Shown: positions 17,472 through 64,000 of the stretch, in pieces | Layout of the letters: each line of letters begins with the position of its first letter | How positions within the stretch are numbered: position 1 is the first letter of the stretch | Source: Myxococcales bacterium | GTDB lineage: Bacteria; Myxococcota_A; Polyangia; Haliangiales; Haliangiaceae | Assembly: GCA_016707895.1 (NCBI GenBank) | Contig: JADJGV010000034.1 | Span: 501,625 to 565,624 of the forward strand | Direction: 5' to 3' | DNA: 64,000 nt | Made by a program: the position numbers and the translations under genes | The notes under the pieces: generated by a model | Told to the model about the DNA's origin: nothing | The model's input: the letters and a program-made list of their open reading frames with translations, nothing else | The model's database searches: none

Positions 17472-18904
<1,433 letters not shown>

Positions 18905-18907
<3 letters not shown>

Positions 18908-20083
18908 CGCCGACACGTCCAGCGTGACGCCGTCCCAGGCCAGCACGTCGCCGACGATCAGCTGCACCCGGCCGGCGCCGATGCGATCCTCGCCCAGCGT
19001 GAACGGCCCGGCCGCGCGGCCCAGCCACGGCGCGCCGGCGGTGAACGCGACCTCGCACGGCAGCCCGGCCGGCGCCAGGTCGATCACCTGATCGGGCCGC
19101 CCGATCACCAGCCGCCGGCCGCGGTCGAGGCCGCTGGCGACGCGCAGGTACGCGACCCCGTCGATCACCTCGAACTCGAGCCGGCAGTCCTCGCCCAGCT
19201 CGACCGCGCCGCGGCCGGCCAGCGGCACCTTGCCCGCCACCGGCAGCCCGCCGATCAGCGTGCCGTTGCGCGAGCCGGCGTCGCCGATCGTGAACCCGTC
19301 GCCGCCGACGGTGATCTCGGCGTGGCGGCGCGACACCCCGCCGGCGCGCAGCGGCAGATCGCACACCGCGTCGCGGCCCATCGCGACCAGGGGCCGGACG
19401 CTCACGATCACCGCGTCGCCGCCGCGCGGGCGCAGCTCGACCTTGCCGCCGCTGATCAGATCGGCGGTGAGCGCGTCGAGCACGCGCTGGCGATCGTCGG
19501 ACGGCTCGGCGGCCAGGCTGCGCGTCAGCGCGGCGCGCGCCTCGCCGCGGCGCCCGAGCCGGCGGTGCAGCTCGTAGTCGGCGAAGGCGTCGCGCGCCGA
19601 CTGCTCGGCGGTGGCGCGGCGCTCGTCGGCGGCCAGCGTGTCCTCGACGCGATCGATCAGGCCGGCGTCGGAGTAGGCCTGGGCCGCGCCGGCCAGCTCG
19701 CCGATCGCGGCCAGCGCGTCGCCGGCCTCGCGGTGGGCGCCGCCGGCCACGAGCAGCGCCGCCGCCTCGCGCACCCGCTCGCGATCGCGCGCGGTGGCGA
19801 CGCCCTCGGCCTTGGTCTTGGCGTACAGCGCGCGGCCCAGCGCCGCGGAGGCCTGGGCCACCAGCGCCGGCTCGTCGCCGGCCCAGTGCACCGCGTCGCG
19901 CAGCGCGGCCAGCTCGGCGGCGCGATCGGCGGCGCGCGCGGCCCGCGCCAGGTGCATGCGCACCGCGCCGGCGCGATCGCCGGCCAGGCCGTAGTGGGTC
20001 GCGGCGGTGTCGGGATCGCCCGCGGCCTCGGCGGCGCGCGCGGCGCGCAGGTCAGTCGAGAACAGCTGGCGGAAGATGCCCAC
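18905..20083 (-). CDS. Protein with a C-terminal FHA domain and an N-terminal TPR-like helical region
   Basis: FHA-domain hallmarks GRDAVCDLPLRAGGVSRRHAEI and SRNGTLIGGLPV. Translationally coupled to the downstream kinase. Confidence 0.75.
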
Positions 20084-20135
20084 GCGAGGGTCGATTATAC
20101 AGCCCGGCGTGGGCCCTCAGCGCCGGTCAGTTCGT

Positions 20136-20245
20136 TTCGCTCGAGCACCGGAGGACGCGTCGGGAGTCTCGCGTCGCGGGGGGAGGCTCGATCCCGGCTT
20201 TGCCGGGATCGAGGGGGGCTCGGCGACGAGCCCCCTGGAACTCAA
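20136..20245. repeat. Structured REP-like intergenic repeat, intact copy (two hairpins)
   Basis: GTTTCG..GACGCGTCGGGAGTCTCGCGTC..GGGGGGAGGCTCGATCCCGGCtttGCCGGGATCGAGGGGGGCTCGgcgacGAGCCCCCTG. A second copy at 31509-31561 plus 33026-33090 keeps both stems through compensatory substitutions. Confidence 0.6.
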
Positions 20246-22083
20246 GGAAGCGCGGCGCCGAAGCGCGCCTGGTACTCGGTGGCGAGCTGGGCCTTGGCGG
20301 CGGCGTCGCCGGCGCGGTCGAGGGCCTTGCCCAGCGCGCGGTAGGCCTGCGCCAGCTCGGGCTCGGCGGCGATCGCCGCGCGCAAGGACGCGATCCCGGC
20401 CGGCAGCTTGTTGCCCTGGGCCAGCATCACGCCGCGCAGGTACAGCGCCCAGGCCGCGCCGCTCCACGCGGCGATCGCCTGATCGCACAGCTTGCGCGCG
20501 GCCGGCACCGCCTGCTGGCGCAGCGCCAGGTCGCACTCGGCGGCGAGCAGCCCGGGCGCGCCGCGCCAGCGCTTGCCCGCGGCCTTGGCCAGCCGCTTGG
20601 CGTCGGCGAACTTGTCGGCGTAGATCGCCGCCAGCAGGTCGCGCACCGCCGCGACGTAGGCCGGCTCGTCGAGCGGCGCGATCTTGCCGGGGACGCCGCC
20701 CGGGGGCAGGCCGTAGCGGCCGCGGGTGCGCAGCACCCAGGCCAGCACGTCGGCGCCCACGCCCGGCTGACGCTGCTCGGCGCTCCGCGCGGCGCGCTCG
20801 GCGTCGGACACCAGCCCCAGGGCCAGGTACGCCTCGGCGGTGGCCATCCACACCGGCACGCGATCGCCGGCCATCGCGTCGACCGCCGCCAGGTGGGCGC
20901 GCGCGCCGGCGAGGTCGCCGCCGGACGCCAGCGCGCCGGCCAGCACCATCCGCGGTCGCGGATCGTCGGGCGCGACGTCGGCCACGCGCTGGCACGCCTT
21001 CACCGCGGCGTCGTCGGCGGCGCCGTCGCGCGCCACCCGCAGCTCGCAGATCGCCATCCGCACGTCGGGCGACGCCGGGTACGCGGCGGCGATCGCGTCG
21101 AGCTCGGCCAGCGCCTCGCCGAGCTTGCCGGCCTGGGCCAGCCGCCGCGCCGCCAGCAGCTGCTCGTTGGCCGCGCCGGCCAGGTCGACCGCGGCGCCGC
21201 CGCTGGCGTCGACCATGACCCGCAGCGCGGCGAGGAACTCGCCCTTGGCGTCGTCGTCCCAGCCGCCCCACGGGTTGCCCTCGAAGTAGCTGGTCAGCCG
21301 CGCCGCCAGCGTGCGCACGTCGAAGCTGCCCCGCGGCGCCAGCCAGGTCTCGAGCGACAGCTGCATGATCGCGCGGCTCGGCTCCGACAAGGTCGCCATC
21401 TCGGCGCTGTAGATCGCGGCCAGCAGCCAGGTCGGATCGTTCTCGTGCGGCGCGCCCAGCGTGTGGGCCAGCTCGTGCAACAGCACGACGGTCTGCTTGT
21501 GGCGGCGCCGCGCCAGGTGCACCCGCTCGCGCTCGGCGTCGCTGGTGTCGGGGAACAGCTGCGTGAACGCCTTGCGCTCGGCGCCGTCGGCGTAGCCGCG
21601 CACGACGACGTGGCGGCCCAGCGGGCGCGCCACGCCGAGCTCCTCGAAGCTGCCCTCGACCAGGCTCAGCGCCGACGCGTAGCCGATGACCCAGTCGACG
21701 TCGTCGCCGGGATCCTTGGCCTCGAGCGCCGCCAGCACGTCACCCAGCTTGCGATCGGCCGAGCGCGCGGGCCACGGCTCGATGGCCTTGGCCTCGAGGC
21801 GGACGCCGACCGCCGGCACCAGGAACTGGTTGGCCTCGTCGAGCTGCTCCTCGATCTGCTGCCGCCAGTGCAGCGTGCCGGCCCGGTAGTCCTCGTCGAC
21901 CCAGACCCGCACGCGCGCGGTGCGGGCCTCGCCCGGCAGCGGCCGCGCCACCTCGAGCCCGGCCGGCAGCGCCTTGCTCAGGTTGCGCCGCTGGATCTCC
22001 TTCTCCTTGGCCGCGTTCGAGAACGCGTTGGTGTAACAGCCGGCGGCCAGGGCCGCGATCGCACACAGGAGAGCGGCGCGCAT
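20242..22083 (-). CDS. Zn-metallopeptidase lipoprotein (HEXXH) with C-terminal TPR repeats
   Basis: Lipobox LAAGCYTN. HELAH in VVLLHELAHTLGAPHEND. TPR-like C-terminal third. Confidence 0.75.
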   Translation of the reverse strand: MRAALLCAIAALAAGCYTNAFSNAAKEKEIQRRNLSKALPAGLEVARPLPGEARTARVRVWVDEDYRAGTLHWRQQIEEQLDEANQFLVPAVGVRLEAKAIEPWPARSADRKLGDVLAALEAKDPGDDVDWVIGYASALSLVEGSFEELGVARPLGRHVVVRGYADGAERKAFTQLFPDTSDAERERVHLARRRHKQTVVLLHELAHTLGAPHENDPTWLLAAIYSAEMATLSEPSRAIMQLSLETWLAPRGSFDVRTLAARLTSYFEGNPWGGWDDDAKGEFLAALRVMVDASGGAAVDLAGAANEQLLAARRLAQAGKLGEALAELDAIAAAYPASPDVRMAICELRVARDGAADDAAVKACQRVADVAPDDPRPRMVLAGALASGGDLAGARAHLAAVDAMAGDRVPVWMATAEAYLALGLVSDAERAARSAEQRQPGVGADVLAWVLRTRGRYGLPPGGVPGKIAPLDEPAYVAAVRDLLAAIYADKFADAKRLAKAAGKRWRGAPGLLAAECDLALRQQAVPAARKLCDQAIAAWSGAAWALYLRGVMLAQGNKLPAGIASLRAAIAAEPELAQAYRALGKALDRAGDAAAKAQLATEYQARFGAALP

Positions 22084-29266: not shown

Positions 29267-29277
<11 letters not shown>

Positions 29278-31465
29278 TCTCCCCCGTCCCCGGGTGCTGA
29301 TCGTCGACGACGACGACATGACCCGCCTGCTCGCGACCGAGACCCTGGAGGGCGCGGGCTTCGAGGTGTTCGAGGCGGCCGACGGCGCGGCCGGCGTCGC
29401 CGCGCACGCCGAGCTGACGCCCGACCTGATGCTGCTCGACGTCAACATGCCCGGCCTCGACGGCTACGGCGTGTGCGCGCAGGTGCGGGCGCGGCCCGAG
29501 GGCAGCGCCACGCCGATCCTGGTGATGACCGCGCTCGACGACGTCGACGCCGTCGAGCGCGCGTTCGCCGCCGGCGCGACCGACTTCCTGACCAAGCCGC
29601 TCAACCTGCCGCTCCTGGCCCACCGGGTGCGCTACCTGCTGCGCGCGGCCCAGGCGTTCCACGACGAGCGCGAGCAGGCGCAGGTGCTGGCGCGGGTGCA
29701 GCGGCTCGCGCGGCTGGCCCACTGGCGGGTCGACGCGGCCGGCTTCGCCTGGGCGTGCGACGTCGGCGCCGTGCTGTGGCCCGAGGTGGCGGCGTCGGTG
29801 CCGGCGCCGCGCTCGCTGCTGGCGCTGGTCCACCCCGACGATCGCGACCTGGTCGCGACCGCGCTGACCACCACCGCGCCCCACCAGCTCGACTACCGGA
29901 TGGTCCTGCCCGACGGCAGCGAGCGCCTGGTCCGCCAGGACGCCGAGGTCATCGACGACGCCGGGCGGCCGGTGCTGATCGGCGCCACCCAGGACGTCAC
30001 CGAGCAGCGCGCGGCCGAGCGCCGGATCGCCCAGCTGGCGTTCTTCGACGATCTCACCGGCCTGCCCAGCCGCGCGTTCCTGCACCGGTTCTTGCGGCGG
30101 GTGCTGCTCGACGCGCGCGCCGCCGGCACGCCGGTGACGCTGATCAGCATCGGCATCGCGCTGGGCGCGGTGCCGGGCACCGTCAGCCCGACCGATCGCG
30201 ACGAGCTGCGCCGGGCCATCGCCGCGCGGGTGGTCGAGCACGTGCGCGGCGCCGATCTCGACCTGCGGCTCGATCAGCCGGTCGGAGATCCCGACGCCTG
30301 GGTCGGCGGCGCGCTGCTGGCGCGGCCCGGCTCCGACGAGCTGGTGCTGGTGTTGCGCGACGCGCGCGCCACCGAGCCCGAGCCGGTGGCGGCGCGGATC
30401 GCGGCGGCGCTGGCGGTCGGCTACCGGGTCGGCGACCACGAGCTGTTCGTGACCTCGCCGGTCGGCATCGCGACCTCGGACGACTCCGGCGACGACCCGC
30501 GGACGCTGATCGAGCACGCCCGGGCCGCCAGCCACCAGGCCCGGGTCGCGGGCCAGCCGGTCCACCGCTTCTCGGCCGACGTGCTGCGCGCGGCGCGGCG
30601 CTCGGCCGACTTCGAGCGCCGGGTCCGCACCGCGGTCGCGCGCCTCGGCGATCCCGCCCGGGAGCCGGAGTTCACGCTCTACTACCAGCCCAAGATCGAG
30701 CGCGGCAGCGGCCGCACCGTCGGGGTCGAGGCGTTGATGCGGTGGTTCCCGCCCGACGGGCCGCCGATCTCGCCGGGCGAGTTCATCCCGGTGGCCGAGC
30801 GCTCCAACGCGATCTCGCTCCTCGGCGACTGGCTGCTGCAGGAGGCGTGCGCCCAGGGCGCGGCCTGGGTCGAGGCCGGCACGCCGATCCACGTCGCGGT
30901 CAACGTCTCGCCCCGGCAGCTGCGCTCGGTCGGCTTCGTCGAGCGGGTGGTCGCGAGCGCGGCCGCCGCCGGCTTCGATCTCGGCCTGCTCGAGATCGAG
31001 ATCACCGAGCACGCCACCGTCGACGACTTCGATCAGGCGGCGGCGGTGCTGCACGCGCTGCGGGCGCGGGGCGCGCGGATCGTGCTCGACGACTTCGGCG
31101 TCGGCCAGTCGTCGCTGGCGTACGTCGCGCGGCTGCCGGTCGACGTGATCAAGATCGACCGCGCGTTCGTGGCCGGCCTCGGGCGCGACCCGGTCAGCGG
31201 CGCGATCGTCTCGGCGGTGATGGCGATGGCCGAGGCGCTCGACATCACCGTGGTGGTCGAGGGCGTCGAGACCGCGCAGCAGGTGCGGATCCTGGGGCGC
31301 TACCCGGCGTGCGAGATCCAGGGTTACTACTGCGCGCGGCCGGCGCCGCCCGCCGAGCTGACGCCGTTCCTCACCGGGCGCTTCGCGTGGAACGTCGACG
31401 ACGACGGCGCCGCGATCGAGATCGCCGTCGACGACGTGCCCGGCGAGGTCGTGCTGGCGTCGTGA
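29267..31465 (+). CDS. Response regulator REC-PAS-GGDEF(degenerate)-EAL, a predicted c-di-GMP phosphodiesterase
   Basis: [14 protein letters not shown]...[16 protein letters not shown] replaced by GDHELF. EAL motifs [19 protein letters not shown] and DVIKIDRAF. Confidence 0.85.
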
Positions 31466-31508
31466 CCTGGCCCGGCCGAGGGAGGTGCGGCGACCGGCCG
31501 GAGCCTGC

Positions 31509-31561
31509 ACGTGTTTCGTTTGAGCCCCCGTCGACGCGTCGGGAGTCTCGCGTCCTGGGGG
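31509..31561. repeat. Left half of the second REP-like repeat copy, interrupted by the IS
   Basis: GTTTCGTTTGAGCCCCCGTCGACGCGTCGGGAGTCTCGCGTCCTGGGGG matches the 5' half of the copy at 20136-20245. Confidence 0.55.
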
Positions 31562-33025
31562 CTGACCATTGGCTACAAGTCCCCGGCGCCGTGACGGAGG
31601 GCGGTGACGGCAGCGGCGGCGGCCGCGACGCGCTCAAGCCCGCGCGTGATGATGCGGACGCCTGGTGGTCCGCCCGAGGATTTGCCCGTGTAGCCGCCGA
31701 TGTCGGCGATCCAGTAGACCAGTTGGCCGACGGTCGCGTCGGCACCGACGGTGACGCCCTTGGGCTTCCGGAGGAGGATGACGGCGTCGATCTCGTCGCG
31801 CGAGAACTCGGTCGCCGCTGGCAGTTCAGGGGTTGTGCGCGATAGCTGCTTGAGGTGTTCAGCCCGGATGGCCACGGTGGCCAAGACGGTAGCCCACTTG
31901 GTGAACGCCGCGACGCTGCGGAGCAGCGAGTCCTCGATGCCGCACGCGCCCGACTTCCAGGCCAGGTGGAACTCCTCGACGCGCCACCGCATCGTGTAGC
32001 CGACGATGACGTCGTGGGCCGCGGCCATCGTGACGACCGACCGGTTGGTCAACAGGCGCCAGTGGATCGGCTCGGCACCGTCGGGTTGATGCCGCTCGCG
32101 CGCCTCGAGCGCGGTCACCGCGAACTGCTCGAACGGGCCCATGCCCGATCGCCCGAGGGGCACGATCAGCTTGACCACACAGGCCCGAACGTCGACGAGC
32201 GCCGTGCGCGCAGCGCGGTCGCGCGTCGCGGGAACGCGCAGCGTATACGCACCCAGCCACCGGCTCGCGCCCAGGACCTCGTTGAGGCTGCGCGTCCCGG
32301 TGTCGGTTGCGACCCGCCGGTTCGACGACGCACGCACCGTGTAGGCCACGTCGAGGCGTGCGAGGTGGCGCAACACCGGCGTCGCGTCACCGCCGCGGTC
32401 GAGTTGGAACCACGGCAACGTCGCCGGCGCGAGCGCCGCCAGGGTCTCCGCACTCATCGTCAACACGTCGATCCAGCGCTGCAACTCGGTCTCTTCGACG
32501 GGCGGCCGCGCGTTGTGGGGTTGCGCGCGCTGCGACCACGACCGCGTCCAGATCGCCTGCGCACCCAGTCCGACCGGCACGCCCTCGGGACTCACGAGCA
32601 GCGCCGACACCGCCTGTAAGCCACTCACGCCGGTGTTGCGCGTCGACAGCGGCCCGAAGTGCGTGCCGGCGCGATCCGTCAGCCCCAGCGCGCTCTGGTC
32701 GACCGGGACGAACACGATGTTGAACGCCGCGGCGCTGCGCGCGCCCGCGCGAAACGCCGCCTGCTGCACTTCGTCTGCGACGACGGCGCGGTTCTCAAGC
32801 AACCGATACGCCGCCTCGCGTTCGGCGCCTTCGAAGACCTGGGTCACGCGGCCGTTGGGGCGCTCGCTCACGCCCGCGGCTATCTCGACCAACCGCGCGG
32901 TCCGTCGCGCGTCGCCGAGCGCTGCATCACCAAACGTCGACGTGGCCCACGCAAGCTGGCTATTCTGCACCTCGAGCAAATCCACGGCCTTGGGCCGAAA
33001 TTCCCGAGATGTGATCAATGGTCAG
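31562..33025 (-). mobile_element. IS4-family insertion sequence with about 11-bp terminal inverted repeats (CTGACCATTGG / CCAATGGTCAG-like) and a 10-bp target-site duplication GTCCTGGGGG
   Basis: Transposase ORF carrying the IS4 signature GYTMRWRVEEFHLAWK (Y-2-R-3-E-6-K). Terminal inverted repeats at 31562-31572 and 33015-33025. The direct repeat GTCCTGGGGG at 31552-31561 and 33026-33035 flanks the element. It sits inside a REP-like repeat copy. Confidence 0.8.
31573..33018 (-). CDS. IS4-family DDE transposase
   Basis: 481-aa ORF with the YxxRxxxE..K motif. Locally lower GC. The reported start is a TTG. Confidence 0.8.
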   Translation of the reverse strand: MITSREFRPKAVDLLEVQNSQLAWATSTFGDAALGDARRTARLVEIAAGVSERPNGRVTQVFEGAEREAAYRLLENRAVVADEVQQAAFRAGARSAAAFNIVFVPVDQSALGLTDRAGTHFGPLSTRNTGVSGLQAVSALLVSPEGVPVGLGAQAIWTRSWSQRAQPHNARPPVEETELQRWIDVLTMSAETLAALAPATLPWFQLDRGGDATPVLRHLARLDVAYTVRASSNRRVATDTGTRSLNEVLGASRWLGAYTLRVPATRDRAARTALVDVRACVVKLIVPLGRSGMGPFEQFAVTALEARERHQPDGAEPIHWRLLTNRSVVTMAAAHDVIVGYTMRWRVEEFHLAWKSGACGIEDSLLRSVAAFTKWATVLATVAIRAEHLKQLSRTTPELPAATEFSRDEIDAVILLRKPKGVTVGADATVGQLVYWIADIGGYTGKSSGGPPGVRIITRGLERVAAAAAAVTALRHGAGDL

Positions 33026-33090
33026 GTCCTGGGGGGAGGCTCGTCGGGGACCTGGCCCCGACGAGGGGGGCTGGGCGACCAGCCCCCTGC
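33026..33090. repeat. Right half of the second REP-like repeat copy (two hairpins)
   Basis: GGGGGGAGGCTCGTCGGGGAcctggCCCCGACGAGGGGGGCTGGgcgacCCAGCCCCCTG. The hairpin stems match the copy at 20136-20245 through compensatory changes. Confidence 0.55.
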
Positions 33091-33093
33091 CAC

Positions 33094-34049
33094 TCAGCGC
33101 ATGAACGTGCGCCGCACCAGGTCGACCGCGCGTGGCCCGAGGGTCTCGCCGCGCCACGCCAGCGCGCGCGACACCACCAGCGCCTTGTCGGCCGGGTTGA
33201 TCCGCGGCCGATCGGCGAACAGGCGCGGGCCGGCCGCGGCGATCTTGTCGAGGATGCGCATGCCGCCGTGCCACATCAGCGCCAGCTCGACCGCGAGGTC
33301 GGGGCCGACCACGTCGACCAGCGGGCGGGCGCGCTCGAACAGCGCCCGGGTGCGCGCCACCTCGTAGCGGACCAGCGCGCCGACCTGCGGCGTCGTGCGC
33401 CGGGCCTCGACGTCGGCCTCGCTGACGCCGAAGTGGCGCAGGTCCTCCTGCGGCACGTAGATCCGGCCCCGGGCGAGGTCGGCCGGCATGTCCTGGATCA
33501 GCCGCGCGAACGCCAGCCCGGTCGCCAGGTCGGCGGCGAACGCGTGCAGCTCGGGGGCGCGGTAGCCGCCGATGTACAACAGCAGGTGCCCGACCGGCTC
33601 GGCGGCCTCGCGGGTGTAGGCGCGCAGGTCGTTCCAGGTCGGGTAGCGCAGCGTCTCGAGATCGGTCCGGAACCCGGACACCAGCTTGACGAACTCGGTG
33701 ATCGGCAGGGCCAGCGACTTGATCGTCGCGGCCAGCGCGACGAACACCGGGTGCTCGGGCGGCTTGCCGAAGTAGGTCTGGTGCAGCAGCTCCTCCCAGC
33801 GATCGAGCTCGCGCGCGCGCCGGCCCTCGTAGGCCGGCTCGTCGGCGAAGTCGTCGGCGACCCGCGCGAACGCGAAGATCGCGAAGATGTGCTGGCGCAG
33901 GTTCGAGCGCGCGAAGATCGACGCCACCGGGAAGTTGTGGTGGTGGGCGCGGCACAGCGCCTCGCAGTAGCGGTAACAGGCGCCGACCTCGAGCGAGGGC
34001 GGCAGCGGGACGGCTTGGGCGGTGGCGCGGCGGTCGCCGATGCGGTGGA

Positions 34050-34056
<7 letters not shown>
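33094..34056 (-). CDS. Squalene/phytoene synthase family protein (HpnD/HpnC- or CrtB-like)
   Basis: YRYCEALCRAHHHNF, ARVADDFADE and the DxxxD-type motifs of trans-isoprenyl diphosphate synthase head-to-head enzymes. Confidence 0.7.
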
Positions 34057-35345
<1,289 letters not shown>

Positions 35346-40203: not shown

Positions 40204-40272
40204 CGGCGAGCGCGCGGTGTTAGCACGGGGCTCGACGCGATGCCGAGTTCCCGGCGCCAACCGTGCGGTGGG

Positions 40273-42150
40273 CTACGGCGCGACCGCGGCAGAACCCGTG
40301 CCCGTCCCCGAACCCGAACCCGTCGCCGTGCCCGTCCCCGATCCCGTCCCCGATCCCGATCCCGTCCCCGATCCCGTCCCCGATCCCGATCCCGTCCCCG
40401 ATCCCGATCCCGTCCCCGATCCCGTCCCCGATCCCGCGCCCACGCCGGCGTCGCCATCGTCGGCGGCCGGCGCGGCGTCCTCGGTGTCGGTGTCCTCGGT
40501 GTCGGTGTCCTCGGTGTCGGTGTCCTCGGTGTCCTCGTCCTCGTCGTCCTCGAAGTCGCCGCCGTCGTCGGCGCCGCCGTTGGCCTCGACCCAATCGGCG
40601 ATCTTCGCCGTCTCGCAGGCCTTGGCCTCATCCGGCGCCTTCTTGCGGCAGTTGGTGACGTCGGTGAACAGGCCCAGGCAGTTCTCGCGCTCGAACTCGT
40701 CCTCGATGCCCTTGCACTCGTCCTGCTTCTTGACCGTGCCGTCGGGCAGGGTGACCTCGTCGACGTTGATCACCGCCTGGGCGCTGGACTTCACCACCGC
40801 CACCAGGCCGTCGAGGGTCCCGGTGGGCTTGGGCGGCGGCACCACGGTCAGGCTCGGCACGTAGGTCACGATCAACAGCGCCGCCATCACGGTGAACATG
40901 AATGGCAAGGTCGCGACCGTGACCTCCAGCAACGGTTTTCGAAACTTGAAGCTGGAGATGAACAGGTTGAGGCCGATCGGTGGGTGCAGGTAGCCGATCT
41001 CGAGGTTGAGCAAGAAGATCACGCCGAGGTGGTACGGGCTGACGTCGTACTCGTGGGCCACGGGCGCGATCAGCGGCACGACGATCAAGATCGCCGAGAA
41101 GATGTCCATGACCATGCCGGTCAGGAGCAAGAGCCCGTTGAGCGCCAGCAGGAACGCCCACCGCGAGTCGATGTGGTCGCGGGTCCAGTGCACCAGCTTG
41201 GCGGGGACGCCCGCGGTCACCAGGTAGTTGGTCAGCGCGGTCGCCGAGTAGATGATGATGAAGATCGCGCCGATCAGCGCCATCGACTCCTTGGTGATGG
41301 CCCACAGCGCCTGGGGCTTGAGGTCGCGGAAGATGCCCATCTCGACGATGATCAGGTACAGCACCGTCAGCGACGCGATCTGCGAGATGTCGCCGACGCC
41401 CTTGGCCAGGCCCAGCAAGATCAAGATCGGCAGGAAGATCACCGGCAGCGCGCCGGGCAGCGAGGCGAACAGCTCGCCCCACTCGAACTTCTGGCGCGGC
41501 ACCTTCTTGATGATCGCGATCGCCACCACCAGCGCCGACAGCATCAGGATCAGCAGCGCGCCCGGGATGATGCCGGCGAAGTAGAAGCGCTCGGTGGCCC
41601 ACTCCCATTGCCAGTTCTCGGGCTTGGGCTGGATGCGCTGCAGGCCATAGATCGTGCCGAACAGGATGATCGGCAGGGCCGGCGGGAACAGCAGGCCGAC
41701 CGAGCCGGTGCCGGTCACCAGGCCGAGCGCGAACCGCTCGGGGTACCGCTGCTTGATCAGCGCCGGCATCAACAGGCCGCCGAGCGCGACGATCGTGACG
41801 CCCGAGGCGCCGGTGAACGTGGTGTACACCGAGCACGCCAGGATCGTGACGATGCCGAGCCCGCCCGGCACCCAGCCCAGCGCGGCGTTGGCGAAGCGCA
41901 CCAGCCGCTCGGCGGTCTTCGACGCGGCCATCACGTAGCCGGCGTAGATGAACAGCGGGATGCTCGAGAAGATCGTCGACTTGTCGCCGGTGCCGAGGCT
42001 GAAGAACTCGTAGGCGAAGCCGCCGAAGTCCTTCTCGAAGCCCTTGGTGCCGGTCTCGGCGCCGATCGCGGTCAAGAACAACATCACCGCGAACAGCGGC
42101 GAGCCGGCGACGAACGCCAGCACCAGCAGGATGATCAGGAGCGTCAGCAT
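40273..42150 (-). CDS. dctM: TRAP transporter large permease DctM with an unusual C-terminal extension of about 190 aa (Cys-rich segment, acidic TEDTD repeats, GSGTGSG repeats)
   Basis: DctM-like polytopic core followed by DECKGIEDEFERENCLGLFTDVTNCRKK...ACETAKI, then EDTDTEDTDTEDTDTED and GSGTGSGTGSGSGTGSG encoded by DNA tandem repeats. Confidence 0.8.
   Translation of the reverse strand: MLTLLIILLVLAFVAGSPLFAVMLFLTAIGAETGTKGFEKDFGGFAYEFFSLGTGDKSTIFSSIPLFIYAGYVMAASKTAERLVRFANAALGWVPGGLGIVTILACSVYTTFTGASGVTIVALGGLLMPALIKQRYPERFALGLVTGTGSVGLLFPPALPIILFGTIYGLQRIQPKPENWQWEWATERFYFAGIIPGALLILMLSALVVAIAIIKKVPRQKFEWGELFASLPGALPVIFLPILILLGLAKGVGDISQIASLTVLYLIIVEMGIFRDLKPQALWAITKESMALIGAIFIIIYSATALTNYLVTAGVPAKLVHWTRDHIDSRWAFLLALNGLLLLTGMVMDIFSAILIVVPLIAPVAHEYDVSPYHLGVIFLLNLEIGYLHPPIGLNLFISSFKFRKPLLEVTVATLPFMFTVMAALLIVTYVPSLTVVPPPKPTGTLDGLVAVVKSSAQAVINVDEVTLPDGTVKKQDECKGIEDEFERENCLGLFTDVTNCRKKAPDEAKACETAKIADWVEANGGADDGGDFEDDEDEDTEDTDTEDTDTEDTDTEDAAPAADDGDAGVGAGSGTGSGTGSGSGTGSGSGTGSGTGSGSGTGSGTGTATGSGSGTGTGSAAVAP
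40290..40560. repeat. Coding hexanucleotide and 12-bp tandem repeats (GATCCC/GTCCCC units and gtcctcggtgtcggt units) that encode the DctM tail
   Basis: Directly visible periodic DNA. GC is locally lower. Confidence 0.7.
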
Positions 42151-61446: not shown

Positions 61447-64000
61447 GTGACGGCGCCGAGCATCGACGCCGAGCCGCGCTACGTCGACGTCGAGCTGGCC
61501 GGGGTCGGCGGCATGGGCACCGTGATGATCGCCCACGATCGCCACCTCGGGCGCGACGTCGCGATCAAGCGGATCGCCGCCGAGCCCGACGATCACGCGG
61601 CCGGCGCGCGGCTGGCGCGCGAGGCGGCGATCACGGCGCGGCTCGAGCACCCGTCGATCGTGCCGATCTACGACGCCGGCGTCGGCCCCGACGGCCGCCC
61701 GTACTACGCGATGCGGCTGGTGCGCGGGCGATCGCTGGCCGAGCGGCTGGCCGACACGCCCGACCTCGCCGCGCGGCTGCCGCTGGTGCGCGCGTTCCTC
61801 GCGGTGTGCCAGGCGATGGCGTACGCCCACCGCCAGGGCGTGATCCACCGCGACCTCAAGCCGGCCAACGTGATGATCGGCGAGTTCGGTGAGGTGCACG
61901 TCGTCGACTGGGGGCTGGCCCGCCGGCTCGACGAGCCCGAGCCGGAGCACGAGGCGCTGGCCGGCACGCCGGCGTACCTGGCGCCGGAGCGCGCGCGCGG
62001 CGAGGGCTCGACCCGCGCCAGCGACGTGTGGTCGCTGGGCGCGATCCTCGGCGAGCTCCTGTGCGGGGCGGCGCTCTTGCCGGCGAGCCGGCTCGAGATC
62101 CTGGCGCGGCTGTCGGCGAGCGAGCCGCCGCCGTGGCCGTGGCCCGCGCGCTGCCCCGGCGAGCTGGTGGCGATCGCGCACAAGGCGCTGGCGTGGCGGG
62201 TGGAGGATCGCTACGTCGACGCCGAGGTGCTGGCCGCCGACGTGTCGGCGTACCTCGACGGCCGCCGGGTCGGCGCCCACGCCTACTCGACGACCGAGCT
62301 GGCGCGGCGGCTGATCTACGCGTGGCGCTGGCAGGTGGCCGCGGTCAGCGCCGGGCTGGTCGCGGGCTCGGTGGTGCTGGCCTTGACCTGGAGCCGGATC
62401 GCCGGCGAGCAGCGGCGGGCGATCCTCGCCGAGCGGCGCGCCACCGCCGCGCTGGCCGACACCCGGGTCGCGCTGGCGTGGGCGCTGGATCGCGGCGCGG
62501 TGGCGGCGCTCTTGGCCGGCGACGTCGCCGAGGCCGAGACCTCCGCCGCGCAGGCGCTCACCTACGGCGAGTCGATCGACGCCCGTGGCGTGCTGGCCGC
62601 GACCCGGGCCGCGGCGCGGCCGCTGGCGGCCCAGCGCGTCGACGTGCCGGGCTGCGCGCAGGTCGTCCCTGACGGCGCCACCACCTTCCTCTGCCACGGC
62701 GCCGATCAGCTCGCGCTGTGGCGGGTCGGCGAGGCCGCGCCGCGCTGGCAGGTGCCGTCGGTGGCGACCGGCGCGATCGCGCTCGACGGGCGCTGGGTGA
62801 TCGCGCTCGAGCGCGGCGTCGCGGCCACCGTGCTCGACGGGCGCGACGGCACGATCCACGCGCGGGTGCCGGTGGCGGCGCTGGTCGACAGCCTGGCCCG
62901 GGATCCGGGCGCGACCCGGGTGGTGCTGTCGAACCAGCGCGAGGCGATCCTGATCGCGCCCGACAGCGATCGGGTGCGCGCGCTCGAGCGGCCGTGCGGC
63001 ACCCGCGCCACCATCGACGCGCTGGCGGTGGGCCGCGCCCAGGTGCTGATCGCGTGCAACGACGGCCGGCTGGTCAAGATCGGCGACGACGGGGCGGCCG
63101 CGGTGATCGCCGAGGTGCCGCTGGGCGGGCAGGACCCGGCCAGCACCGCGGCGCTGGCCGACGACGAACGCACGCTGGCGATCGGCGGCATCCACGGCCA
63201 GCTGGTGCTGGTCGATCTGGTCACCGGCACGGTGTCGGCGCCGCGCACGGTGCTGCCCGAGCCGGTCCGCCGGGTGCGCCTCCTCGGCGAGCTGGTCGCG
63301 GTCGCCGGCGAGCGCGGCGGTATCCACGTGTGGAGCCGCAGCCTCGAGGCCGAGCTGCTGCGCCTGCCCGAGCGCGCCGGCGGGCGGTTCGAGCGGGTCG
63401 GCGACGAGCTGGTGACCGGCGGCGCCGGCTGGTGGCGCTGGCGGCTGCCGCCGGTCCCGCAGGCCCGCCGCTTCGAGGCGCCGGCCGGGCTGGCGGCGGC
63501 GGCGGTCTCGCCCGACGGCACCCAGGTCGTGGCCGCGCGCGGCGACGGCCGGCTGTCGATGTGGCAGACCGCGCTCGGGCGGCTGATCGCCGAGCCGGTG
63601 CTGGGCCCCGGCGTGATCAAGCGCGCGGCCTTCTCGCCCGACGGGCGCGAGATCGGCGTGGCGATCGCCGGGCCGCCTGGCGCGCTGGTGGTCGACGCGG
63701 CGTCCGGGGCGATCGTCTCGACCTCGCCCGATCTCCCGGGCTCGCACCGGGTCGCGTACCTGCGCGACGGCACGCGCGTGCTGGTGCCGTACGGCGACCG
63801 GCTGATCCGCTGGACGCCGAGCGGCGAGCGCCGCGAGGTGCGCGGCGCGCTGTGGGGCGATCTCGAGCTGTCGGGCGATCGCGCGCAGATCTGGCTGCTG
63901 TCGCGCAGCGGCGAGGTGTGGCGCGCCGACGGCGGCGCGCCGGTGCGGCGGTTCGAGGTGCCCGGGGCGCTGTCGATCGCGCCGTTCACCGCCGCCGCCG
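61447..64000 (+). CDS. Ser/Thr protein kinase with a TM segment and a C-terminal WD40/beta-propeller-like repeat region; partial, continuing past the window end
   Basis: Hand translation gives VIHRDLKPANVMI, DWGLA and GTPAYLAPE. The repeat-rich C-terminal region is open to the window edge. ORF 60964..63747 on the opposite strand is the antisense artefact. Confidence 0.8.
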   Translation, partial: MTAPSIDAEPRYVDVELAGVGGMGTVMIAHDRHLGRDVAIKRIAAEPDDHAAGARLAREAAITARLEHPSIVPIYDAGVGPDGRPYYAMRLVRGRSLAERLADTPDLAARLPLVRAFLAVCQAMAYAHRQGVIHRDLKPANVMIGEFGEVHVVDWGLARRLDEPEPEHEALAGTPAYLAPERARGEGSTRASDVWSLGAILGELLCGAALLPASRLEILARLSASEPPPWPWPARCPGELVAIAHKALAWRVEDRYVDAEVLAADVSAYLDGRRVGAHAYSTTELARRLIYAWRWQVAAVSAGLVAGSVVLALTWSRIAGEQRRAILAERRATAALADTRVALAWALDRGAVAALLAGDVAEAETSAAQALTYGESIDARGVLAATRAAARPLAAQRVDVPGCAQVVPDGATTFLCHGADQLALWRVGEAAPRWQVPSVATGAIALDGRWVIALERGVAATVLDGRDGTIHARVPVAALVDSLARDPGATRVVLSNQREAILIAPDSDRVRALERPCGTRATIDALAVGRAQVLIACNDGRLVKIGDDGAAAVIAEVPLGGQDPASTAALADDERTLAIGGIHGQLVLVDLVTGTVSAPRTVLPEPVRRVRLLGELVAVAGERGGIHVWSRSLEAELLRLPERAGGRFERVGDELVTGGAGWWRWRLPPVPQARRFEAPAGLAAAAVSPDGTQVVAARGDGRLSMWQTALGRLIAEPVLGPGVIKRAAFSPDGREIGVAIAGPPGALVVDAASGAIVSTSPDLPGSHRVAYLRDGTRVLVPYGDRLIRWTPSGERREVRGALWGDLELSGDRAQIWLLSRSGEVWRADGGAPVRRFEVPGALSIAPFTAAA

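Follow-up and report, generated by a model that had tools for sequence, protein, structure and literature searches.

What kind of element is a short, hairpin-rich intergenic module that occurs twice in one stretch of a myxobacterial genome, and how did each copy come to lie directly behind a stop codon? The stretch (hereafter the window) comprises 64,000 nucleotides of contig JADJGV010000034.1 (GenBank assembly GCA_016707895.1, forward-strand positions 501,625 to 565,624). It derives from an uncultured wastewater or activated-sludge myxobacterium, and the TPR protein encoded beside copy 1 of the module occurs in identical form on the NCBI metagenome-assembled genome (MAG) GCA_943370995.1 and on ENA, Logan and JGI wastewater contigs. 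A first-pass annotation of the window had described a module of about 105 bp at 20136-20245 and again at 31509-31561 plus 33026-33090, with stems that differ between the copies, and had offered three options for it: a repetitive extragenic palindromic (REP) or miniature inverted-repeat transposable element (MITE) family, a terminator family, or a small RNA. The letters are as described at these coordinates, and in both copies the stems hold up as quoted, each self-complementary. What that annotation had missed is the insertion sequence (IS) that splits copy 2 and the site specificity of this IS, the abutment of the module on TGA in a fixed orientation, and the lack of a target duplication. These features lead us to propose that the module is probably a small mobile element, one that itself serves as a preferred target of a Tn5-like IS.

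The module, its empty site and its relatives

Copy 1 sits on the minus strand behind a TPR-protein gene (20242-22083, minus strand) and ahead of an FHA-domain gene (18905-20083, minus strand). A close relative, whose TPR protein is 96% identical and which is represented by five contigs (L029-L033; L numbers denote the loci retrieved for comparison), has the junction ccgTGA|CTGTATAATCGACCCTCGC|gtg at this place, a spacer of 19 nt. The window has identical flanks with 139 nt between them (20103-20241, minus strand), and the corresponding empty site is TGA|CTGTATAAT. More distant orthologues, 70% and 64% identical, have unrelated spacers of 44 and 32 nt, again without the module. Because these orthologous sites lack the module, the ancestral state was empty, and the TPR stop codon (20242-20244, minus strand) is native, since a TGA stands at the same position in the empty site. 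Copy 1 thus entered exactly between the native TGA and the next base, and at this one locus no bases are duplicated at its junctions. The empty orthologous sites therefore point to an inserted, non-autonomous mobile element and lend direct support to the first of the three options offered for the module. They also correct its size: the recurrence stands, while the insert in copy 1 is 139 nt and not about 105 bp.

The four nucleotides in front of the element are nearly constant. Among 11 copies they read CTGA ten times and TTGA once, against a background for YTGA of 0.0037 per position, and the orientation of the element relative to YTGA is uniform in all copies. In 10 of the 11 this TGA is where the upstream gene stops, and the remaining copy (L028B) is preceded by the CTGA that ends another copy, L028A. 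The same holds for tandem arrangements generally, in that the following copy begins right after the terminal CTGA of the first, and a partial copy in L025 begins right after the GCGCTGA of a tail. A target duplication of TCAG or TCA at both ends was considered and rejected: the right-hand CTGA is the target, the left-hand one is the tail of the element, and the empty site has no duplication. Terminal inverted repeats are not convincing either, as the match of GAGCACCGG to GAGTTCCAGG is weak and L007 has lost it.

Read on the strand of the upstream gene, the consensus is YTGA, then a lead of 6-7 nt (GTTCCA-like), three hairpins in the order hp3, hp2 and hp1 with a linker between the last two, and a tail; the whole element measures about 125-140 nt and is non-coding. 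Hairpin hp3 has 9-10 bp and the loop TCGC and lies 6-7 nt from the element end in all copies. It is directly adjacent to hp2, which has 9-12 bp and a variable loop. The linker is C-rich (CCTCCCCCCGC or ..CCAG (CCTCCC..)), hp1 is GACGCG-AGACTCCCGR-CGCGTC, the most conserved sequence block of the family, and the tail is GACCGGTGCTCG..CGAAA..CTGAC..GCGCTGA. A 3' subterminal hairpin is weak and was seen only in copy 1 and L025.

Copy 1 follows this order, with the lead GTTCCA, hp3, hp2, the C-rich linker, hp1, a tail ending in GGTGCTCGAGCGAAACGAACTGACCGGCGCTGA and then 14 extra nucleotides; a covariance model scores it at 20130-20244 with 134 bits. Its hp3 (20214-20235, minus strand) has a 9-bp stem, GGGGGCTCG/CGAGCCCCC, around TCGC in gene sense, which is GCGA on the plus strand and is unchanged in 11 of 11 copies. 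A 12-bp stem, CTCGATCCCGGC/GCCGGGATCGAG, and a 3-nt loop form hp2 (20187-20213, minus strand), and hp1 (20154-20175, minus strand) consists of the 6-bp stem GACGCG/CGCGTC and a conserved 10-nt loop. The tail (20117-20153, minus strand; CTCCGGTGCTCGAGCGAAACGAACTGACCGGCGCTGA in gene sense) has the terminal CTGA that, in the tail alignment, also terminates the tails of L025, L028A and L028B. The 14 nucleotides that follow it (20103-20116, minus strand; GGGCCCACGCCGGG in gene sense) are within the insert and past the consensus end; 11 of the 14 (GGCCCACGCCG) recur at the equivalent place in L007, and they may represent a long variant or a second small insertion.

On its other side, copy 1 is bordered by a TATAAT box (20094-20099, minus strand) 10 nt before the GTG with which the FHA-domain gene starts. 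Orthologues conserve this box 8-10 nt before GTG (also at about 11876-11881 in L028 and about 11889-11894 in L034, with TATACT in L034/35), which suggests that the transcript of the FHA-domain gene is leaderless or has a very short leader. Copy 1 has been inserted where the -35 region of that gene would lie.

Copy 2, also on the minus strand, begins at the base after the TGA stop (33094-33096) of a squalene/phytoene-synthase-family gene (33094-34788, minus strand). An exact-protein look-up of its 564-aa open reading frame (ORF) returned no record, because gene callers choose a 319-aa start instead. The stop-proximal part of copy 2 (33026-33093) holds the lead GTGGCA (33088-33093), hp3 (33066-33087), hp2 (33040-33065), part of the linker and one copy of a 10-bp duplication (33026-33035); the stop-distal part (31511-31561) holds the other copy of the duplication (31552-31561), the rest of the linker, hp1 (31533-31554) and the tail. 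A remnant of a second element lies at the same locus (31464-31494, minus strand). It agrees at 30 of 31 positions with the stretch of the L003 copy that runs from hp2 loop to hp3 loop, is truncated on both sides, and overlaps the TGA stop of a convergent GGDEF-EAL gene (29267-31465, plus strand).

The flanking genes of copies 1 and 2 are not paralogues. The two copies share the 22-mer GACGCGTCGGGAGTCTCGCGTC, which has exactly two matches in the window (20154 and 31533, both on the plus strand) against a chance expectation of 0.03, and none of 100 shuffles had at least two. A covariance model (R1), run on the window and on all loci, found no third copy in the window, and matches to the motif GTCTCGCGTNNNGG were not above chance there. 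These two results are what one would expect if the similarity were due to chance or to a recent local duplication and did not reach beyond the window, the finding that the first-pass annotation had said would undo its claim. We give that explanation next to no weight, given the low expectation for the 22-mer, the unrelated flanking genes, and the at least nine further copies that occur elsewhere, at other loci and in other MAGs.

In total, 11-12 distinct copies were found, spread over wastewater metagenomes and at least three related MAGs of uncultured Myxococcales. Exact-pattern scans yielded full modules in L002/L003 and L005 (metagenomes) and in L007 (Myxococcales MAG GCA_016794525.1). Others came from the flanks of the IS: m3 (L015/16/21/22/23 with L014/20/22/23), m4 (L024), L025, L026 and LF(c). 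A locus that had been fetched for another reason than the module search, L028 of MAG GCA_016717005.1, carries, behind a protein-kinase gene, the full copy L028A and the degenerate copy L028B in tandem. The upstream genes are unrelated and include those for TPR, SQS_PSY, OYE flavin oxidoreductase, YgaP-like membrane and protein kinase proteins, among others. When the fetched loci were compared with the window by tblastx, the module itself was the sole match, and this lack of synteny beyond the module rules out orthology and segmental duplication. Copies at such unrelated loci can be 94% identical. The claim that the module belongs to a dispersed, structured intergenic repeat family of myxobacteria is thus borne out by copies in other genomes and unrelated contexts. 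Partial or degenerate tandem copies in L025 and L028, together with the remnant at 31464-31494, show that the family forms mosaics like those of bacterial interspersed mosaic elements (BIMEs).

As expected of a repeat, the module breaks assemblies: contigs L002, L009, L011 and L012 terminate inside or at it. Exact searches with a 20-mer of hp1 hit one locus in a set of genomes representing 185,579 species, and in JGI metagenomes they hit three distinct loci with the module, a result that speaks against canonical copies being very numerous. Scans of viral contigs with three patterns gave nothing or chance 17-mers inside genes. The exact hp1 22-mer is also present in three related metagenome contigs with a GC content of 71% (L001 6729-6750, L004 3055-3076 and L006 4944-4965), in a different context with an A-rich stretch next to it and without hp2 or hp3. 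They may represent a stand-alone hp1 unit of a different organism or may have arisen by chance, and they were not used.

All three hairpins were recovered in every fold. The 126-nt gene-sense strand folds better than its shuffles with z = -5.7, compared with z = -2.55 for the plus strand; in gene sense six copies gave z values of -2.0 to -3.9, which are modest because the 75% GC background itself folds strongly. In five independent full copies, 25 of 25 pairs are 100% paired and nine are altered on both sides, a result that none of 500 shuffles equaled; slid controls were paired at 41-56%. Extended to the 11-12 copies, hp3 is fully paired in 10 of 11 (nine different stems) and hp2 in 10 of 10 (at least five stems), although the hp2 difference is partly a block replacement (type ATCCCGGC versus type GCGGGG) and not five separate events. 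Hairpin hp1 was invariant in the first five copies, and among the later ones three have a single mismatch and one has a compensatory change from A-T to G-C. The compensatory stem changes that had been claimed from two copies therefore hold on five and on 11-12.

Variable stems with conserved loops, linker and tail indicate selection on a folded single strand. This covariation does not discriminate between RNA and single-stranded DNA, and assigning a strand from wobble pairs, loop types and GC skew was uninformative. The single stem irregularity, in hp3 of L007, is a G-T wobble on the plus strand and C-A on the other, and the hp2 loop of L025 and L028A, GCAAG, is GNRA-like on the strand opposite to that of the hp3 loop, so loop identity picks no strand. 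Two further pairings were not counted: a closing stem or terminal inverted repeat (GAGCACCGG/CCTGGAACTC), present in copy 1 and L005 and lost in L007, and a linker-tail helix (CACC/GGTG; CCCCC/GGGGG in copy 2), for which support was mixed.

A Tn5-like insertion sequence in the module linker

Copy 2 is split by an IS4-family, Tn5/IS50-like IS of 1,464 bp (31562-33025, minus strand). Its ends, CTGACCATTG.../...CAATGGTCAG, form imperfect terminal inverted repeats identical at 14 of 19 positions, and the 10-bp direct repeat that flanks it, at 31552-31561 and 33026-33035, is GTCCTGGGGG. The IS has a GC content of 70% versus 75% for the window. It encodes a transposase of 481 aa (ORF 31573-33018, minus strand, TTG start) with the Pfam domains Tnp_DNA_bind (1.7e-12), DDE_Tnp_1 and Dimer_Tnp_Tn5, and relatives of this protein carry the NCBI name 'IS4 family transposase'. 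Excision of the IS and one repeat copy leaves a colinear module of 115 nt, and precisely this uninterrupted module is present in other assemblies of the organism (L036, L037 and L041), which shows that the insertion was clean. The IS-bearing allele was found in L039, L042 and L043. In a third allele (L038 and L044), an 82-nt deletion between two CCTCCC/GGGAGG microhomologies takes hp1 and the tail and leaves hp2 and hp3; L038 2640-2712 and L044 are orthologous to 31466-33093 of the window. Intact, IS-split and deleted alleles coexist in wastewater samples.

The position of the IS is not peculiar to copy 2. An identical transposase was found on at least 24 wastewater contigs. On the ten contigs shown, and in MAG GCA_016794525.1 with a transposase 98% identical, the IS end abuts GG[AC]GTCTCGCGT followed by the 10-nt sequence GTYYYGGKKG, or else the complementary hp2 side. 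Nine distinct junctions fall at one position beside GTCTCGCGT, in both orientations and in modules of differing sequence; they include the sites c2 (copy 2), m3 (duplication CCACCAGGAC), m4, LF(c), RF(d), RF(e) and RF(f). Two more diverged relatives also lie in modules. One with a 63% identical transposase occupies the same position in a diverged module (L026) with a 9-bp duplication, and one at 53% occupies the hp3 loop of another diverged module (L025) with an 8-bp duplication, CTGGCGAC. The exceptions are the junction L015 RF, which is not module-like, and a 57% relative (L027), which is not in a module. A preferred target of this Tn5-like IS4-family IS is the linker that separates hp1 from hp2, with GTCTCGCGT and then GTYYYGGKKG.

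Some contigs (L014, L016, L017 and L018/19) join the flanks of different sites across the IS, with mismatched duplications. They may be assembly chimeras or IS-mediated recombinants, and some may be real rearrangements; L018 and L019 have an identical joint in two independent assemblies. A different artifact is seen in L020 1-55 (ERZ27280346 k141_219796), where a Nextera adapter with the Tn5 mosaic end (GTCTCGTGGGCTCGGAGATGTGTATAAGAGACAG) is fused to the module linker, a case of adapter contamination. L025 (2550-2818) has a PDZ gene cut short to 77 aa and, behind it, part of a module that starts exactly at the hp3 loop (GGCGACAGGCCTCCCAGGAAACTCAG), the same point at which the related IS is inserted 130 nt downstream; this arrangement suggests an IS-associated rearrangement. 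A 50% relative of the IS (L060 and L061, transposase gene 1501-2895) is flanked on both sides by a different multi-hairpin palindromic repeat (GCTAACGCACGGCC..., GGACGCCTGCGGCGTCC, GGGGGAGCTCGGACAG), in perfect inverted copies of 48 nt or more. Either this IS has very long terminal repeats or it occupies the center of a palindrome of the kind known as REPIN (a REP doublet forming a hairpin). Directly downstream of the 57% relative, on the lower-GC contig L027 (1710-2468), is a 252-aa Y1_Tnp-like ORF with the HUH motif HIHL; no link was found between this ORF and the module.

Insertion sequences that seek out intergenic repeats are known elsewhere. ISRm22, an IS4-family element of Sinorhizobium meliloti, has 10 of 10 copies in REPs (PMC1525189). 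Like ISRm22, IS1397, ISKpn1, IS621, ISPpu9/10 and ISPa11, the IS described here occupies a defined position inside one family of intergenic palindromic repeats, and it falls within the definition of a REP-targeting IS given by Tobes and Pareja (2006), under which most copies lie inside one repeat family at a defined position. It differs from ISRm22 in belonging to the Tn5/IS50-like branch (Tnp_DNA_bind plus Dimer_Tnp_Tn5) and in its Myxococcota host. It also differs in that the association extends down to 53-63% transposase identity and to diverged modules, and in that the target is the single-stranded linker by GTCTCGCGT or, for one relative, the hp3 loop.

With Tn5/IS50 the IS shares the transposase domain set, ends that start CTGAC, a 9-10-bp duplication and an N-terminus of the form LITS..WA.S.F..AALGD.RRTARLV. 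Compared with the ends of Tn5, the IS ends agree at 13 of 19 positions for the outside end and at 15 of 19 for the inside end. The weak target consensus of Tn5 contrasts with the near-site-specific insertion found here. Tn5 is the workhorse of random mutagenesis and tagmentation, and a natural relative with a defined target of about 20 nt could reveal how target choice is encoded in this transposase family. There is also a practical side, because short-read assemblies of these MAGs break at the module and the IS and acquire chimeric or recombinant joints there.

A probable mobile passenger and its rivals

Elements with a Y1 transposase are target-site specific, insert 3' of a 4-5-bp site without duplicating it, and carry subterminal hairpins but no terminal inverted repeats; in short non-coding form they are known as the palindrome-associated transposable elements (PATEs) and the REPs (PMC4810608). 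The module has a 4-nt target on one strand, is inserted 3' of it without duplication, has no convincing terminal inverted repeats and has ends that appear structured, and it is this combination that leads us to read it as a passenger of the PATE or REP kind. On balance we think it probable that the module is a small non-coding, non-autonomous mobile element, about 125-140 nt long, of an uncultured Myxococcota lineage. We hypothesize that a HUH Y1 transposase of the IS200/IS605-RAYT type (RAYT, REP-associated tyrosine transposase) would mobilize it in trans by single-strand 'peel and paste' transposition. The position at stop codons would then follow from the TGA within the target combined with selection against insertions inside genes, and the fixed orientation from strand-specific insertion. 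Once inserted, the module would be transcribed as the 3' untranslated region (UTR) of the upstream gene and, by analogy with REPs, may stabilize or end transcripts.

The likeness to known families is partial in each case. Along with the PATEs and other non-coding derivatives of IS200-IS605, the module is short and non-coding, has no convincing terminal inverted repeats, no target duplication (at one empty site) and ends that appear structured, and sits 3' of one specific 4-nt sequence on one strand; it also occurs in tandem after its own CTGA. It is unlike them in having three different hairpins versus two alike subterminal ones, stems that drift, an ill-defined 3' end, an association with stop codons in 10 of 11 copies, and no cognate transposase or full-length parent found in about 300 kb of related DNA. 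The REP/BIME/REPIN families of Enterobacteria and Pseudomonas, with their RAYT transposases, resemble it in being extragenic and GC-rich, in having hairpins with compensatory changes at gene 3' ends, in forming mosaic or tandem arrangements with partial copies, and in being hot spots for IS. The module differs from these in its length (115-140 nt with three unlike hairpins versus a palindrome of 20-40 nt or an inverted doublet), its tandem direct copies without inverted doublets, its lack of a 5' tetranucleotide of the GTAG type, its apparently low copy number compared with the tens to hundreds per genome, with copies beside a RAYT gene, that mark REPs, and its strict one-orientation abutment on stop codons. 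Finally, the mycobacterial interspersed repetitive units (MIRUs) of Mycobacterium are short intergenic repeats in a high-GC genome that have a fixed orientation between genes and touch the upstream stop codon. They consist of tandem units of 40-100 bp with small ORFs that overlap stop and start codons and are not hairpin modules, and they have no sequence similarity to the module.

Several observations weigh against a Y1-mobilized passenger. Neither a Y1 or RAYT transposase nor an autonomous element with the ends of the module was found in the 300 kb or so of related DNA, except for the unrelated Y1_Tnp-like ORF of L027. The statement that no target is duplicated rests on a single empty site. 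The 14 nt past the consensus CTGA of copy 1 mean that the 3' boundary is not sharply defined, and the hairpins near the two ends are unlike each other and have drifting stems, which is untypical of IS608-type ends, the one at the 3' end being in addition weak and inconsistent between copies. Copy number is apparently low in the exact 20-mer scans, though variant copies escape that pattern. To these may be added the IS contigs with flanks that do not belong together (L014, L016, L017 and L018/19) and the undefined far side of the junctions RF(d)-RF(f).

Could the host, rather than a transposase, have placed the module where it is? A cassette selected for its function at the 3' end of mRNA, either as a terminator without a U-tract or as a 3' UTR that stabilizes the message, could have spread by recombination or gene conversion, and its place and orientation would then reflect that function. 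Every copy lies directly 3' of a gene and in sense orientation, the gene-sense fold beats shuffles for the 126-nt strand and for the six copies, the stems covary, and enterobacterial REPs are known to stabilize upstream mRNA. Yet there is no U-tract or T-run after any hairpin, and a terminator scan found 0 sites. Copy 1 and the L007 copy lie between co-oriented genes, where close relatives manage with the 19-nt spacer, so the module is dispensable, and the IS-split allele and the allele without hp1 and tail coexist in the population. A cassette of this kind leaves unexplained the base-exact insertion, the conserved non-stem sequence over 115 nt, the 94% identity at unrelated loci and the tandem starts after CTGA. 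We therefore consider it unlikely as the origin of the module, while a function at mRNA 3' ends is compatible with the mobile-element reading as a secondary role. We assign a much lower probability still to a small RNA gene on the plus strand, antisense to the 3' end of the upstream gene, in which the three stem-loops and the GCGA (GNRA) tetraloop would be functional. The hp3 loop is GCGA in all copies, the irregular pair in L007 becomes a G-T wobble on this strand, and GGAGG-like motifs are present on it. However, there is no promoter-like site (a sigma-70 scan found no full promoter, and neither a sigma-54 nor a sigma-70 promoter could be fitted inside the tail) and no Rfam match, myxobacterial small RNAs included. 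Searches of 19900-20500 at E up to 10 gave only noise far below gathering scores (mir-1276, E 1.1; gyrA, E 4.4). Moreover, the plus strand hardly beats its shuffles, the GCAAG loops of hp2 are GNRA-like on the opposite strand, and the module is absent in close relatives and interrupted or partly deleted within the population. As primary explanations, the terminator and small-RNA readings are less likely.

The IS itself might be suspected as the mover, the module being a MITE derived from it or moved by it through DDE cut-and-paste transposition, and the two are physically associated in several genomes. We regard this as very improbable, for the module ends (GTTCCA... / ...GCGCTGA) are unlike the IS ends (CTGACCATTG), the IS duplicates 9-10 bp where the module duplicates none, and the existence of an intact allele that the IS splits makes the module the target, not the passenger. 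Other classes of structured element were also considered and rejected. An integron attC site consists of one long imperfect palindrome with RYYYAAC...GTTRRRY cores and stands at the 3' end of a mobile cassette within an array; this does not agree with three separate hairpins or with flanking genes that are syntenic core genes, only the module being missing at the empty site. The attC, retron, group II intron and TnpB guide-RNA readings are without any defining feature, and ARAGORN found no tRNA or tmRNA in the window.

Returning to the module as a mobile passenger, we can extend the hypothesis in a more speculative direction, which we offer as a possibility only. The module may belong to an undescribed HUH-mobilized miniature family that uses TGA (CTGA) as its insertion site, each copy being a ready-made structured 3' UTR, and a Tn5-like clade may have evolved near-site-specific recognition of its linker. 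If so, this would be a nested, co-evolving pair of mobile elements, with a naturally site-specific Tn5 relative for which the linker serves as a safe landing pad, and the association would have outlasted the divergence of both partners, to transposase identities as low as 53-63%.

Families of structured intergenic repeats have been studied extensively in Proteobacteria; a full-text literature search found none described for Myxococcota. Neither layer is new in kind, whether the small structured non-autonomous element or the IS aimed at it; what is new is this family. Its genetics are clear: the empty site is clean, one locus has three alleles that coexist, and insertion follows a strict rule, directly after TGA in one orientation. 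A target that contains TGA, together with the removal of insertions inside genes, would provide a simple account of why repeats cluster at gene 3' ends in high-GC genomes. What deserves follow-up is the rule that ties the target to stop codons, and the near-site-specific insertion of this Tn5 relative.

Other features of the window and its relatives

Three other repetitive patterns in the window are of coding origin or probably so. A 67-nt inverted repeat (17931-17997 and 61812-61878, 84% complementary) is not a repeat element: two paralogous Ser/Thr protein kinases are encoded there on opposite strands, and the repeat is their conserved HRDLKPxN catalytic-loop region. Between 8325 and 15400, three tandem paralogous genes follow one another at spacings of 3,455 and 3,302-3,305 nt. 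They share blocks of 68-82% identity that include a Walker A motif (GPTGVGKTELA), and in orthologous contigs their products, 756-1,139 aa long, are annotated as AAA_2/ClpB_D2-small proteins. Imperfect 6-nt units (GATCCC/GTCCCC) with periods of 12 and 18 at 40268-40453 are probably a low-complexity acidic or Gly-rich coding repeat on the opposite strand.

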